Shown: positions 18,712 through 63,141 of the stretch, piece after piece
Numbering within the stretch: the stretch's first letter is position 1
How the letters are laid out: the number at the start of each line of letters is the position of its first letter
Virus record (IMG/VR): IMGVR_UViG_3300014204_000113
Coordinates: 64,001 to 128,000 of that record
Reading direction: 5' to 3' (one strand)
DNA length: 64,000 nucleotides
From: a virus
Taxonomy: Duplodnaviria; Caudoviricetes
Made by a program: the position numbers and the translations under genes
Notes under the pieces: model-generated
What the model was told of the DNA's origin: nothing
Databases searched by the model: none
What the model saw: the letters and a program-made list of their open reading frames with translations, nothing else

Positions 18712-19026
18712 TTGCGACTTAAATTTGAAAGTTGTTTTGAAACTCAATTTCGGGAAGAACTTGAAAGTCGTGGATTCATAAAGAATAAAGATTTCATACA
18801 AGAATTTCCAGTTCGGTATCCAACCCGAATAATCGACTTTGTATTTTATGACAAAAAGGTTGGTGTTGAATTGGATGGTCCACATCACATTGGTAAGAAA
18901 AAGTATGTTGACAAGTGGAAAGATGAAAAAGCAATAAAACAAGGATGGGTTATTGTAAGATTTGATTTGGAGCAAATGAAAGATATCAAGAATTGTGTTG
19001 ATATGGCTTTAAGTTTGATTAAATGA
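18712..19026 (+). CDS. DUF559/Vsr-like PD-(D/E)XK endonuclease
   Basis: E...QEFPV...IIDF...VELDGPHH...D..KD.....GW.IVRF; TTG start with GAGGT RBS inside the array. Confidence 0.8.
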   Translation: MRLKFESCFETQFREELESRGFIKNKDFIQEFPVRYPTRIIDFVFYDKKVGVELDGPHHIGKKKYVDKWKDEKAIKQGWVIVRFDLEQMKDIKNCVDMALSLIK

Positions 19027-23106: not shown

Positions 23107-23661
23107 ATGAACTTGGTACTGTGTAAATACAAAATTACTGGCTTATTTCCACTTTTAACCCACAGTCCTGCTGGAATGAGGCAAGCGGCCAATGCGCCAA
23201 AAGTCAAGAAGATTCCATCGCCAGAAGATGAAGCACAAGCTGGTTTGTATATTGATAATGATGGAAATTATTGCATCCCGTCTATTGCTTTTCGTTCAGC
23301 TTTATTGAATGGATTGAAAGGGAAAAAGATTGGCAAGGTGGGTGCAATTTCAGTGTTTCAAGCTGCGGTTTTTAACGTGGACGAATTGAGTCCATTAGTT
23401 GACCCTGAAACTGGGCGAGCATTAAGGGAATATACGATCGACACTCGTAGAGCTATCGTGCAAAGACAAGGAATTTTAAGAAACCGTCCAAGATTTGAAA
23501 AATGGGGATGTAATGTTTTTCTTCAAATCGACTTGGAAATAACCACACCTGAGCAAGTAGAAGAAGCATTGAATACGGCTGGTCAAATCATTGGCGTGGG
23601 TGATTTCCGTATTGAAAAGAGAGGAATGTTCGGTAAGTTTCAAGCCGAATTGGTTGAATAA
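23107..23661 (+). CDS. stand-alone RAMP/Cas7-like protein, paralog 2 (GGC arrays)
   Basis: ITGLFPLL, IPS, DTRRAIV...ILRNRPRF..W, AG..IGVGDFR....GMFGKF. Confidence 0.8.
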   Translation: MNLVLCKYKITGLFPLLTHSPAGMRQAANAPKVKKIPSPEDEAQAGLYIDNDGNYCIPSIAFRSALLNGLKGKKIGKVGAISVFQAAVFNVDELSPLVDPETGRALREYTIDTRRAIVQRQGILRNRPRFEKWGCNVFLQIDLEITTPEQVEEALNTAGQIIGVGDFRIEKRGMFGKFQAELVE

Positions 23662-52343: not shown

Positions 52344-52413
52344 GGTCCGGTATGGTTTGGTGAGGTATGGTGAGGTGCGGTAAGGTGAGGTCAGGTTTGG
52401 TGGGGTAAGGTAT
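52344..52413 (+). ncRNA. GGT-NN pentamer array A5 (14 units)
   Basis: NN = CC AT TT GA AT GA GC AA GA CA TT GG AA AT; same leader and tail as A3. Confidence 0.85.
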
Positions 52414-52445
52414 GGGTTTCAACTATCTTCAAAGTTTTGCTTTTT

Positions 52446-52520
52446 GGTATGGTCAGGTATGGTTAGGTAAGGTATGGTACGGTTCGGCGGGGTTTGGTTC
52501 GGTAAGGTAAGGTATGGTAA
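52446..52520 (+). ncRNA. GGT-NN pentamer array A6 (15 units)
   Basis: NN = AT CA AT TA AA AT AC TC GG TT TC AA AA AT AA. Confidence 0.88.
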
Positions 52521-52522
52521 GG

Positions 52523-52549
52523 TAGATGGGAGAGTCTATCTCCCATCTA
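52523..52549 (+). terminator. 11-bp hairpin closing array A6
   Basis: TAGATGGGAGA-GTCTA-TCTCCCATCTA. Confidence 0.7.
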
Positions 52550-52568
52550 AATTTTAAACGGAGGAATA

Positions 52569-54179
52569 ATGCGCGTTCTTTTTGTGAATGAAAAATGGGT
52601 CCGCAACGATCCGACTTTACGAGAGGCAAGAGGCACAGTAGAAAGCTACCTAGAAAGCGGTTTTGGCACGGCATCAGAATTTCATTGCGATGAATATTTT
52701 TATAACTACAAGAGGGATTGGAATTTTCCTCTGATAGAAAAGATAATTGAAGAAAGACCAGATGCGATTTTTTTTATGTGGATTAACAGCCAGTACAATC
52801 CTTCATTAGATGTATTTTCTATTATTCATAAAATGGGAATACCCATAGTTTGTTGGTGGGGAGATTTTTCGTTTGAAGGTTCTGTAAGAAACGCTCAAAA
52901 TTTATCTCCATTTATATCCACACATTTGATTGCAGACACTCCAATTGCTTTAACAAATGATGTCCATATAGAAAAATACAAACATATTTGGCCTACACCA
53001 ATTAACCAATTCTTTTTTAAAGGAGAAGAAAAAGACAGAATTATTCCAGTGTCTTTTCCAGGTGGAACTATTGAAGGTGGAAATAAAGGACCAAGAGAAA
53101 AGTACATAAAATATTTAATTGAAAATGGAGTAGGTGTTTTTGTGGGAGGAACAAGAAAAGAAGAAACAACTATGCAATATGCTGATACGCTTAGAAAATC
53201 TCAAATAGTCATAAACTTTTCACCTCTAGGTCAATATGGTTGCCCGTTGAAAGGAAGGTCTTTTGAAGCGATATGGTGTGGCTCTTTATTGATGGAGCCG
53301 TCTGGTTCCTTTCTTGAATACCATTTTACACCATATTCTGATTATATTCCTTATGATAATGAAAATGATTTATTAAATAAGATCAGATATTTTAGCGCAA
53401 ATAAGGAAGAAAGAGAATCAATCGCAAATCGTGGACATGAAAGAGCAATTCAAAAATACAACCCATTTTCTTTTTGGAATAAAATATTTAATGATTATTT
53501 AATTCCATATGATTTACATCTTGATATGCAGAATATACGCGGATTATTGGATTTCTTCATCTCTAAAAAGAAAGAAGTCTTTTGTAATGATTTTGTTTTC
53601 ATTAAAGAAATTTCATATTTAATTGAAAACTTGAATATCAAAGAATTTTGGGAAACTGGAAGTTATTTGGGTCATTCAACTGATTTCATCAAAAGTTTAT
53701 TCCCAAAATTGGACGTGTTCAGTTGCGACATTCACGAAGGCTATCTTGAAACAGCAAAAAATAATTGTCCTTTGGTAGATTACAAACTAATTGATTCTGT
53801 TAATTTTCTAAAAGAAAGAATTGACAATTATTCTGTCCCAACTTTTGTTTTTCTCGATGCACATGGTCATGGTGGTGGTTTGCCATTAGAAAAAGAATTG
53901 CAACTGATAGGGAATTCTGAAAAGAAATATGTACTATGTATTCATGATTGCAGACTTCCGAAAAGACCTATTTTTGGATGGGATAATTATAATGGAGTTG
54001 ATATTTCTGTTGAACTAATAGAAAAGGTTTTGAAGAAAACTGATTGTATTTTTGATATCTTTATACCATCAAATATTTATAATCATGACCCGCTAAGAGG
54101 AAGATGTTATGTTTTCGTAAATTGGTTTGAAAATTATACTATTGATTCTAAACTATTTACAAAATTGGAGGATATTTAA
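52569..54179 (+). CDS. GT-B (CgeB/Glyco_trans_1_2-like) glycosyltransferase fused to a SAM-methyltransferase-like domain
   Basis: KGRSFEAIWCG, HF.P..DY; C-terminal ETGSYLG, FLDAH, IHD. Confidence 0.75.
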   Translation: MRVLFVNEKWVRNDPTLREARGTVESYLESGFGTASEFHCDEYFYNYKRDWNFPLIEKIIEERPDAIFFMWINSQYNPSLDVFSIIHKMGIPIVCWWGDFSFEGSVRNAQNLSPFISTHLIADTPIALTNDVHIEKYKHIWPTPINQFFFKGEEKDRIIPVSFPGGTIEGGNKGPREKYIKYLIENGVGVFVGGTRKEETTMQYADTLRKSQIVINFSPLGQYGCPLKGRSFEAIWCGSLLMEPSGSFLEYHFTPYSDYIPYDNENDLLNKIRYFSANKEERESIANRGHERAIQKYNPFSFWNKIFNDYLIPYDLHLDMQNIRGLLDFFISKKKEVFCNDFVFIKEISYLIENLNIKEFWETGSYLGHSTDFIKSLFPKLDVFSCDIHEGYLETAKNNCPLVDYKLIDSVNFLKERIDNYSVPTFVFLDAHGHGGGLPLEKELQLIGNSEKKYVLCIHDCRLPKRPIFGWDNYNGVDISVELIEKVLKKTDCIFDIFIPSNIYNHDPLRGRCYVFVNWFENYTIDSKLFTKLEDI

Positions 54180-55156
54180 TGATTGGCGTTTTTATACCCA
54201 CTTGCAATAGGCCAGAGTTTTTGCAAAGAGCATTATTGTATTATAATAGCAAATCTGAATTCTTACAAAATGTAGTTTTTCATCTATATGATGGTTCTAG
54301 TAAAGAATCTTATAACTTAAATAAAAAAGAAGTTAGAAAATACAAAAATTTAAACATAAACCATGTATGGTATGAAAATCAGAAAAATGAATTTCACAGA
54401 CTTATAGAATCGACTAAAAACATTCAAGAAGAGTATATTTTACAAGTAGGTGATGATGATTTTATAATTGTTGAAAGTCTTAAACCAGCACAGATATTTT
54501 TAGACTCAAATAAAGATTATGTTGCTTGTAGTGGTTTAAGAATGTCTTTTGTATTGGAAAATCCTGATGAAAAACAAACCAAAGGAACTAACCTTCACAT
54601 AACAAGGTCTGTACCAGGACCATATTGGCCTGTTAATGACCCTATAGGATGTTTTAGGTCGTATATGAGAAGTGGAATTCCAATGCAACACTTTCTTGTC
54701 AGAAATGAAGTATATAAGAAAATGTATGCGCATTTGGAAAGAGAAGAATTTAAAACGCCATTACTATCCCAAGATTTGCTTCCTTGCGCGATTCTGTCTT
54801 TAAGCGGCAATATCAAAAGATTGGATTTTGTTTTTTCATTTGCGCGCCAAGAAAGCAACTTGTCTACATATAAATATTTAGACGAGATAATGACTGATGA
54901 TAGTTTTTCTAATAACTTTGTGTTGACTAAAGAATTATTAGTAGATAAGATTAAAGATTTTGTAGGATTGGATGAAGCAAAAAAGATAGTTGATGGCGAA
55001 TTTGTAATAAGATTTATTCAATTGCTAGAATGGACTAGAGATGTAAAATATAAACCGCAAGGAAGGTATCCATTAGAAGGGCATGATTTTATTCCTTCTA
55101 CCCAAGTTTATTATCACAATATAATTAAAGAATTATTTCAATTGTGTAAGAGGTAA
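54179..55156 (+). CDS. GT-A glycosyltransferase (TIGR00180-like), paralog 2
   Basis: IPTCNR, DGS, GDDDF. Confidence 0.8.
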   Translation: MIGVFIPTCNRPEFLQRALLYYNSKSEFLQNVVFHLYDGSSKESYNLNKKEVRKYKNLNINHVWYENQKNEFHRLIESTKNIQEEYILQVGDDDFIIVESLKPAQIFLDSNKDYVACSGLRMSFVLENPDEKQTKGTNLHITRSVPGPYWPVNDPIGCFRSYMRSGIPMQHFLVRNEVYKKMYAHLEREEFKTPLLSQDLLPCAILSLSGNIKRLDFVFSFARQESNLSTYKYLDEIMTDDSFSNNFVLTKELLVDKIKDFVGLDEAKKIVDGEFVIRFIQLLEWTRDVKYKPQGRYPLEGHDFIPSTQVYYHNIIKELFQLCKR

Positions 55157-55162
55157 TTTATT

Positions 55163-56518
55163 TTGTTAAATGTATTATTGATAAATCCACAAACACCCAA
55201 TTATATATCTAACAAAGAATACATAATGCCTCCTTCTTTGTTGCATTTGTCTCATCATTTGCAATCCACCATGACTGCGAATGTGGATATATTGGATTAC
55301 AATACTTGGAGAGCAGCGCCTTTACATTCCATAGATAATTTTGATGAATATGATTATGTTGGAATAACTAATCTATTTTCTGGACATTTCCAATCAACAA
55401 TGGAAATTGCCAAAACAATCAAAGAAAAAAGTCCCAAAACAAAGATTGTTGTTGGCGGAATACATCCAACTATTTTTCATAAAGACATTATAGATAATTG
55501 CGAATATATAGATTATGTTATTATAGGCGAAGGCGAATATTCATTCAGAAAATTATTGACTAACGAATCTACTGATGGTATTTGTTATAGAGTTGGCAAG
55601 AAAACTTTTGTAGAACCAAAAACTTGTTTCATAGAAGATATTAATACTGTAGCTCCTCCAATATTGGGTTATCAAAGTATTGATTTTAACGACTATGCTT
55701 ATAGTAGAAATTTTTGGTATAATCCAAAAGGCTTTGATTTAACACATTCTGTCGAAGTACCGATTTTAACTAGCAGAAGTTGTCCAAACAGGTGTAATTT
55801 TTGTTCTATGTTTTTGGTGATGGGACCAAAAATAAGATTGAGAAATCCATATATAGTAGTTAATGAAATAGAATGGCTGTATAGAGAACATGGTGTTGTG
55901 ATGTTCACCATGATGGATGACAATATCACTTTGGTTAAATCACATATTACGACTATCTGTAAAGAAATAATAAAGCGAAAATTAGATATATCTTGGCAAA
56001 CACCAAATGGGTTGATGATAAGAACATTAACACCAGATGTGATAGACCTTATGGTGAGTAGTGGATGGTATCGTTCAATGATTGCTATTGAGTCTGGTAA
56101 TAGTTATATCAGAAACGAAGTGATGGGCAAGAGGGTTTCTGATAAAGACATTTATAAAGTGGTGGAATATATAAAGAAAAAACATAATCATGTTTTTCTT
56201 CGTGGCCTTTATATCATGGGGATGGCTGAAGACGATGGGACAACACTGCAAGACTCATTGGACATGATAAAAAACTTACAAACTAATACTGATTCAGTTG
56301 CTAATATCATGCCATTTCCAAAAACGAAAGTATTTGAACAAGCGGTGAGAGACAATTTATTTTTTGAAGATGTAGATATTAAAAATTTGTGGCGAGAAGA
56401 AAGGCTTGATTACAATGACAATAAAAAGTTTATAATAAAACCCTATAAAATGACTTTAGAAGAATTAAAAGATTGGAGGGTTAAATTTGATACAGCAATT
56501 AAAAATAAAAGCAAATGA
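55163..56518 (+). CDS. B12-binding radical SAM enzyme (class B methyltransferase-like)
   Basis: VGGIHPT, GEGE, TSRSCPNRCNFC, IESG. Confidence 0.88.
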   Translation: MLNVLLINPQTPNYISNKEYIMPPSLLHLSHHLQSTMTANVDILDYNTWRAAPLHSIDNFDEYDYVGITNLFSGHFQSTMEIAKTIKEKSPKTKIVVGGIHPTIFHKDIIDNCEYIDYVIIGEGEYSFRKLLTNESTDGICYRVGKKTFVEPKTCFIEDINTVAPPILGYQSIDFNDYAYSRNFWYNPKGFDLTHSVEVPILTSRSCPNRCNFCSMFLVMGPKIRLRNPYIVVNEIEWLYREHGVVMFTMMDDNITLVKSHITTICKEIIKRKLDISWQTPNGLMIRTLTPDVIDLMVSSGWYRSMIAIESGNSYIRNEVMGKRVSDKDIYKVVEYIKKKHNHVFLRGLYIMGMAEDDGTTLQDSLDMIKNLQTNTDSVANIMPFPKTKVFEQAVRDNLFFEDVDIKNLWREERLDYNDNKKFIIKPYKMTLEELKDWRVKFDTAIKNKSK

Positions 56519-62574: not shown

Positions 62575-63141
62575 ATGAAAATTAAAGTTACAATTCAAGG
62601 AACAGTTCCAATTTTATTTAATCGTTTTGCAGAAGAGAATGAAGTTAAAGTTGCTTCTGGAATTAATCCAGTTCAAGGAGGACAAAGAGGAACGCCTAGA
62701 GAACAAGCAGAAAAGAAACTATATCAAGACGTGGATGGGAATTTGTTTCTTCCAAGTCCTATGTTATTTTCTTGTTTAGTAGATGCTGGTAAATTCCATA
62801 AAGTGGGAAGAAATAAAGTTACGACTCAGAAGACTTCTTTAGTTCCTGCCGGTATATCTGTTGAAGAATTAATCATTCCGTTTAATACTAAAGATTGGGA
62901 AATTGATTCTAGAAGCGTTGTGATACCATCTACTGGTGGTAGAATCATGTGTCACAGACCCCGGCTTGATGAGTGGCAATTAACTTTCACTTTGGATGTT
63001 GATACAACAATGTTTGATCCTAAGTTTGTTAGGACTCTTATGGATGATGCAGGCAAGAAATGTGGCTTGGGTGATTATAGACCTAATCGTAAAGGGCCAT
63101 TTGGTAAATTTGTTGTGATTAATTGGGAAGAAGAAAAATAA
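62575..63141 (+). CDS. stand-alone RAMP/Cas7-like protein, paralog 3 (TGT array)
   Basis: IQGTVPIL, LPS, DSRSVVI...RIMCHRPRL..W, AG..CGLGDYRP..KGPFGKF. Confidence 0.8.
   Translation: MKIKVTIQGTVPILFNRFAEENEVKVASGINPVQGGQRGTPREQAEKKLYQDVDGNLFLPSPMLFSCLVDAGKFHKVGRNKVTTQKTSLVPAGISVEELIIPFNTKDWEIDSRSVVIPSTGGRIMCHRPRLDEWQLTFTLDVDTTMFDPKFVRTLMDDAGKKCGLGDYRPNRKGPFGKFVVINWEEEK

Follow-up and report, generated by a model that had tools for sequence, protein, structure and literature searches.

An intergenic module of pentamer arrays

The window analysed here, a stretch of 64,000 nucleotides, belongs to a virus record of 187,988 bp, whose G+C content is 34% and whose genes nearly all lie on the plus strand; the phage it represents is called G0 below. 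About a dozen intergenic arrays are found in this genome, each made of a fixed triplet followed by two free bases (NN) in a strict 5-nt register. Most have GGT as their triplet, but those clustered between 23 and 24.6 kb have GGC, and TGT occurs at 62.4 kb. Two of these arrays, A5 and A6, lie in an intergenic module between the gene GT2 and a glycosyltransferase (GT) gene, the surroundings of which form a sugar-pathway gene cluster (Table 1). A6 spans 52446-52525 and consists of 16 strict GGY-NN pentamers, 15 with GGT and one with GGC, without a single indel. It begins 32 nt past the end of A5 and stops 43 nt before the GT gene. The hairpin at its tail has a minimum free energy of -18.8 kcal/mol (centroid, hairpin alone, -18.3) and a z-score of -2.7. 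The surroundings of the arrays showed neither a sigma-70-like promoter nor an intrinsic terminator pattern, no Rfam family matched, and a megablast search of 44000-56000 against phage records returned no match. The stretch is present in landfill and groundwater metagenome runs, and all genomes compared here are metagenome assemblies.

Table 1. Features of the A6 locus and the Vipr genes (window coordinates)
Feature	Position	Strand	Remarks
DUF559 (Vsr-like) nuclease-family gene, candidate accessory (vap)	18712..19026	+	Pfam PF04480, E = 4.5e-8; between arrays A2 and A3
Vipr paralog 1, 176 aa	19123..19653	+	PDB 36pp 'SUSP1 Vipr protein', E = 1.9e-14; G-loop aligned
Vipr paralog 2	23107..23661	+	among GGC-NN arrays
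Intergenic module with arrays A5 and A6	52331..52568	+	between GT2 gene and GT gene
Array A5, 14 GGT-NN units	52344..52413	+	pentamer register
A6 guide, units 1-11, predicted target-pairing part	52446..52500	+	22/22 to L004:3184-3215
A6 3' handle, units 12-16 (AA AA AT AA AG)	52501..52525	+	end common to other arrays of the phage and its relative
A6 tail hairpin, 11-bp stem, 5-nt loop	52523..52549	+	from folding
GT gene, 536 aa, Pfam Glyco_trans_1_2	52569..54179	+	resident copy of the family predicted to be targeted by A6
Resident near-target, GT codons 62-72	52752..52784	+	19/22; mismatches in R, A, F codons
GT codons 456-467	53934..53969	+	24/24 sense match to guide of G1 array 1116-1195
Vipr paralog 3	62575..63141	+	behind TGT-NN array

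Repeats of this type are known from VIPR, which was described in three 2026 bioRxiv preprints (10.64898/2026.04.26.720920, 10.64898/2026.04.26.720927, 10.64898/2026.10.15.759431). Vipr is a small RAMP protein that polymerises on a GGY-NN vrRNA, with one protomer per pentamer in the filament and an R-loop triplex that starts at the 3' tail end (10.64898/2026.04.26.720920, 10.64898/2026.04.26.720927). The NN base-pair with dsDNA, and one target base in three, usually the wobble position, is skipped; a target may be on either strand, a PAM is not required, and transcription is silenced from either strand (10.64898/2026.04.26.720920). Vipr-vrRNA can also pair with ssRNA in vitro, mostly as incomplete filaments and with no triplex (10.64898/2026.04.26.720927). 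The system is used in phage and satellite conflicts (10.64898/2026.04.26.720920, 10.64898/2026.10.15.759431). Its authors set the target cut-off at 80% NN identity and found no self-targets (10.64898/2026.04.26.720920).

Three Vipr paralogs are encoded in the window. They are 27-37% identical to each other and adjoin GGT, GGC and TGT arrays, which suggests that three orthogonal repeat specificities may coexist in one phage. The GGT arrays probably have Vipr paralog 1 as their protein partner. A near relative of G0, the 189,632-bp IMG/VR record G1, was compared whole with it; G1 carries one distant Vipr only (22% identity), and the DUF559 homologue is absent from it.

Resident and rival alleles of the glycosyltransferase gene

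The initial annotation held that the first 11 NN of A6, read as their reverse complement, fit the downstream gene at 19 of 22 positions, making A6 an antisense guide to that gene. This is borne out. The site, 227 nt downstream of A6, is the sole match of at least 18/22 in the 64-kb window and, with both orientations of the 187,988-bp genome considered, the sole one of at least 17/22. Genome-wide, 19/22 was reached by 4 of 1000 unit-order shuffles of A6, and a test limited to the 2-kb flanks gave p = 0.007. Because the match is unique in the genome and so few shuffles equal it, it exceeds what chance would produce. The NN fall on codon positions 1 and 2 with the wobble base skipped, in all alleles, and the vrRNA is predicted to pair with the GT coding strand. 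The resident allele departs from the guide in units 4, 7 and 10, a spacing that is not significant by our own count (31/165).

The peptide decoded from the guide, E-K-P-D-V-I-F-Y-M-W-I, is exactly the allele of another phage contig, L004 (Ga0233425_10010709), whose GT is 70% identical to that of the window and which the guide fits at 22/22. Two further contigs, L001 from IMG/VR (GT 68% identical) and L049 from groundwater (92% identical), are each matched at 21/22. All three matches sit at codons homologous to GT 62-72 and so bear out the antisense match independently, and all three contigs have an empty site with no array: 8 nt lie between the GT2 stop and the GT ATG in L049, 20 nt between the GT2 stop and the GT start in L004, and the region upstream of GT in L001 contains no array. 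The 19/22 allele of the window is also found in G1 and in the contig L006; G0 and G1 have the A5-A6 module upstream of it, and L006 has an extra ORF there. Since the module is absent from L049, L004 and L001, its insertion is polymorphic in the lineage. The A6 guide fits alleles of genomes that lack the A5-A6 module. What the initial annotation took for the target is a real match but only a near one, and the perfect and near-perfect fits are rival alleles without the array. What is new here is that an 11-unit guide matches the GT alleles of other phages better than the allele beside it.

Several further observations concern the variability of this site. In L006 (2350-3040), the place of A5-A6 is taken by an additional ORF that shares about 72% identity with the GT C-terminal domain; this is a third state of the GT2-GT site. 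Among contigs aligned to the window, a joint from 52325 to 53652 reproduces the L006-type arrangement in two samples that also contain the window strain, and a divergent strain co-occurs with the window strain in two samples. Between G0 and L049, nucleotide identity falls to 0.60-0.72 at the GT and GT2 5' ends (52569-52700 and 51311-51500), compared with about 0.88 in the gene bodies. This low identity beside array sites could stem from escape evolution, or simply from the variability usual at N termini. Viral contigs were also scanned for the exact gapped patterns of the guides, with 0 matches for A6 and 0 for A5.

The guide occupies only part of the array. In the four alleles of the window, L001, L003 and L004, unit 12 is fully mismatched, units 13-14 match in part and units 15-16 not at all; in the perfect L004 match, units 13-16 agree at no more than stray single bases. 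Units 12-16 resemble the last units of other arrays in G0 and G1, with a loose consensus of AA, A/G-T, A-A/G and G/A-A at the array end, usually followed by GGG and a hairpin. The perfect cross-genome matches of other guides likewise end 4-5 units before the array end. By these comparisons, the final 4-5 repeats of an array belong to a conserved handle and not to the guide. The distinction has practical weight. Over all 16 units of A6, the L004 match amounts to only 75%, which is below the 80% VIPR cut-off, so the standard pipeline, like any that scores every NN, would miss targets such as L004. At the resident site, identity is 86% over the guide units and 69% (22/32) over all 16 units.

By its sequence, A6 is a predicted vrRNA and a member of the already published VIPR system. 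The product of the Vipr paralog 1 gene is a minimal RAMP protein with a G-loop, and two further paralogs are present; A6 is a tandem GGY-NN array in strict register; natural one-base-skip targets exist in L004, L001 and L049, with the skipped base at the codon wobble in every GT allele; and the handle units and 11-bp hairpin make up a constant, structured 3' tail. One published feature differs, namely vrRNAs that flank the vipr-vap locus, as A6 lies 33 kb from Vipr paralog 1 and 10 kb from Vipr paralog 3.

The closest known systems are the VIPR loci of Escherichia phage SUSP1 and of a Pseudomonas fulva prophage, which share with the present one the GGY-NN pentamer RNA, a small RAMP-type Vipr with the same G-loop, a one-base skip that falls on the wobble base, PAM-independent targeting of both strands, and use in inter-phage conflict (10.64898/2026.04.26.720920, 10.64898/2026.04.26.720927). 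In those loci the guides flank vipr, whereas here they are spread across the 188 kb of the genome, and each adjoins the resident copy of the gene that it would target in rivals. The targets here are ordinary phage genes (sugar pathway, recA), and three Vipr paralogs are associated with GGT, GGC and TGT repeats, both unlike SUSP1 and P. fulva. The tail consists of 4-5 constant units and a simple hairpin, where SUSP1 has a pseudoknot. Furthermore, a DUF559 nuclease gene stands beside vipr in a phage, while the VIPR paper reports nucleases only in host-defence types. Solo or orphan vrRNAs of SUSP1-family phages and F5 satellites resemble A6 in being far from or without vipr, in their wobble alignment, and in a self-match below the rival match that avoids autoimmunity (10.64898/2026.10.15.759431). 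They are aimed at vipr, vrRNAs, satellites and host REP decoys, whereas A6 is predicted to target an allele of the neighbouring gene, and, unlike them, A6 resides in a VIPR-positive genome.

Reciprocal guides and their orientation in the lineage

The same pattern recurs at other arrays of the lineage. For instance, the G1 array at 1116-1195 lies behind the GT gene of G1; its guide fits the GT gene of the window perfectly (Table 1) and the allele of G1 itself at only 14/24. Array A1 of G0 matches the G1 allele of its upstream gene at 18/18 over 9 units, and the G1 array at the A1 site matches the G0 allele at 20/22. G0 and G1, as judged from these matches, carry predicted guides against each other. 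For an array in L006, the fit to GT2 is 27/28 with the L049 allele but 21/28 with that of L006 itself. In each case the resident homologous site lies no more than about 350 nt from its array.

The G1 version of A6 (A6', L046, G1 188839-188943) has 21 units, of which units 1-9 are identical to A6. Its units 10-17 are a further antisense segment, one that agrees with GT codons 20-27 (window 52626-52649) at 14/16 positions. This composite guide suggests that arrays may evolve by unit-level recombination. A6' keeps the tail hairpin of A6, with its loop inverted. Outside the window, the minus-strand array M1 (genome 167541-167630) sits between genes that abut in G1, which lacks the array, and its guide fits, in sense orientation, a 40-aa ORF starting 25 nt downstream, at codons 2-14 of that ORF (22/26, p = 0.003).

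Other arrays are less readily placed. The NN of A4 (window 48598-48657) correspond in frame to the final 20 codons of the epimerase gene upstream, with 28/40 positions agreeing (p = 0.003), and the alignment stops exactly at the last sense codon of that gene; a better-matching rival allele for A4 was not found. No targets were found in the sequences compared for A5, A3, A7, T1 and the GGC arrays, and A5 has no local match above background. Scans for related loci with the epimerase and with the RecA-like protein found no relatives. Beyond the lineage, 202 GGT arrays in 79 unrelated IMG/VR loci were examined for self-matches in their flanks, and 3 of 774 tests gave p <= 0.005, about what chance predicts. 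Having an array beside the resident allele therefore characterises this lineage and not VIPR at large, and in a text search the VIPR preprints made no mention of homing, of alleles or of such placement.

The initial annotation also proposed that arrays with an upstream target match in sense and those with a downstream target antisense, which would suggest a fixed geometry relative to the insertion site, and it advised tabulating orientation across homologous arrays. Such a tally for this phage lineage, with homologous arrays counted once and the counting done post hoc, agrees with the upstream half of the claim. All six upstream targets are matched in sense (A1, G1-136845, A2, A4, G1-1116 and G1-186370) and none antisense. 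Downstream targets are mixed, with three antisense (A6, the second segment of A6', and G1-187584, a weak 19/22) and two sense (M1 and the L006 array). Under a fixed geometry, the side of the target would dictate orientation, with the vrRNA 3' tail always toward the array insertion site, as would be expected, for instance, if conversion from a strand-specific cut had to proceed in the direction of the array. The six upstream cases and the three antisense downstream cases agree with this. M1 (22/26) and the L006 array (27/28) are well-supported exceptions, the concentration of all three antisense cases among the five downstream targets has a hypergeometric probability of only 10/165 = 0.06 (our own arithmetic) under post-hoc counting, and published VIPR needs no PAM and is active on either strand (10.64898/2026.04.26.720920). 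We consider a fixed geometry quite unlikely. M1 and the L006 array refute the strict rule, though there may still be a bias in which upstream guides are always sense. The further suggestion that the use of both orientations points to a dsDNA target stands and agrees with published VIPR biochemistry (10.64898/2026.04.26.720920), so it is not new. Likewise sound is the deduction that sense guides, being unable to act on mRNA, would have DNA as their target.

Readings of the A6 guide and allele-linked deployment

The reading that we favour, and regard as probable, is that A6 is a VIPR guide against GT alleles of the E-K-P-D-V-I-F-Y-M-W-I type in related phages lacking the array, with its own allele spared. 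By analogy with the published filament, A6 would be loaded on Vipr at one protomer per pentamer, with units 1-11 serving as guide and units 12-16 plus the hairpin as constant handle and tail. Its NN would bind GT codons 62-72 on their coding strand, skipping each wobble base. During co-infection, the complex would block the GT gene and sugar-pathway operon of the rival, or alternatively damage them by way of the DUF559 nuclease, and the three mismatches in units 4, 7 and 10 would spare the resident gene. This self-sparing is the weakest step and is assumed, because the resident match of 19/22, or 86%, exceeds the published 80% cut-off. Fine tuning of the mismatches is also questioned by A6', which shares only units 1-9 and then switches, so that arrays may instead be decaying or recombining. 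The same preference for rival over self in G1-1116, A1 and the L006 array supports the rival-allele reading of A6.

That excess over the cut-off (10.64898/2026.04.26.720920) is also an argument for self-regulation, in which A6 would be a cis-encoded partial silencer of its own GT gene and 19/22 a functional match; the resident match is, moreover, the best in the genome and lies 227 nt downstream of the array. Yet 22/22 and 21/22 fits exist in the alleles of other phages, guides of the lineage fit rivals far better than self (24/24 versus 14/24 in one case), and the VIPR authors found no self-targets (10.64898/2026.04.26.720920), all of which makes self-regulation unlikely. A conventional antisense role, with A6 complementary to the GT mRNA and acting on RNA rather than DNA, would accord with its complementarity to the coding strand and with the pairing of Vipr-vrRNA to ssRNA in vitro (10.64898/2026.04.26.720927). 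We rate it very improbable, since most guides of the lineage are in sense and unable to pair with mRNA, and ssRNA yields mostly incomplete filaments and no triplex (10.64898/2026.04.26.720927). Finally, an AT-rich repeat might simply match an AT-rich gene: the NN composition is biased, and the 11-unit sub-window was picked after seeing the data. Such a coincidence is rejected as next to inconceivable, given the 4/1000 shuffles and the 22/22 fit at the corresponding codons in L004, whose homologue is 70% identical.

A more far-reaching proposal starts from the rival-allele reading and concerns the linkage itself. Free-standing homing endonucleases of T4-like phages (Seg, Mob) and marker exclusion offer a parallel: an intergenic insert stands beside the gene that it attacks in relatives, the resident allele is resistant by virtue of a few substitutions, and relatives have empty sites. 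A6 resembles them in that the insert adjoins the predicted target gene, the resident allele differs by few substitutions and empty sites occur; it differs in that recognition would be by RNA. A guide with an adjacent mismatched, immune allele could accordingly be a selfish homing-like cassette, an RNA-guided allele drive between phages, which we put forward as a tentative and rather doubtful possibility. In such a scheme, Vipr-vrRNA would mark the rival allele in co-infection, a recruited DUF559 nuclease or a stalled replication fork would break it, and recombinational repair from the attacker would carry both the array and the resistant stretch of gene linked to it into the rival genome. The DUF559 (Vsr-type) gene adjoins that of Vipr paralog 1, which makes cutting and homing-like spread conceivable. 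Against this, G1 has arrays and a distant Vipr, yet the DUF559 homologue is absent.

Divergence between the two genomes was also considered, as a co-conversion tract would leave unusually divergent sequence beside an array. The one local hint of this is that, between the GT proteins of G0 and G1, 38 of the 50 residue differences lie in the last 86 residues, adjoining the array of G1. The idea that array flanks are genome-wide hot spots of divergence was rejected, as the flanks lie near the median divergence between G0 and G1 in a comparison in which only 58% of G0 aligns with G1.

As described in 2026, VIPR is a locus-centred system directed against satellites, prophages and other VIPR loci. 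The present lineage shows a different deployment, with single guides inserted beside ordinary genes and aimed at the alleles of those genes in rivals. The new content lies in the identification of a natural target and in this allele-linked deployment. The 22/22, 21/22 and 19/22 sites are natural, sequence-defined pairs of presumed sensitive and resistant targets that could be used to calibrate the mismatch tolerance of VIPR. Furthermore, the tight linkage of a guide to a resistant allele raises the idea of RNA-guided marker exclusion or homing.
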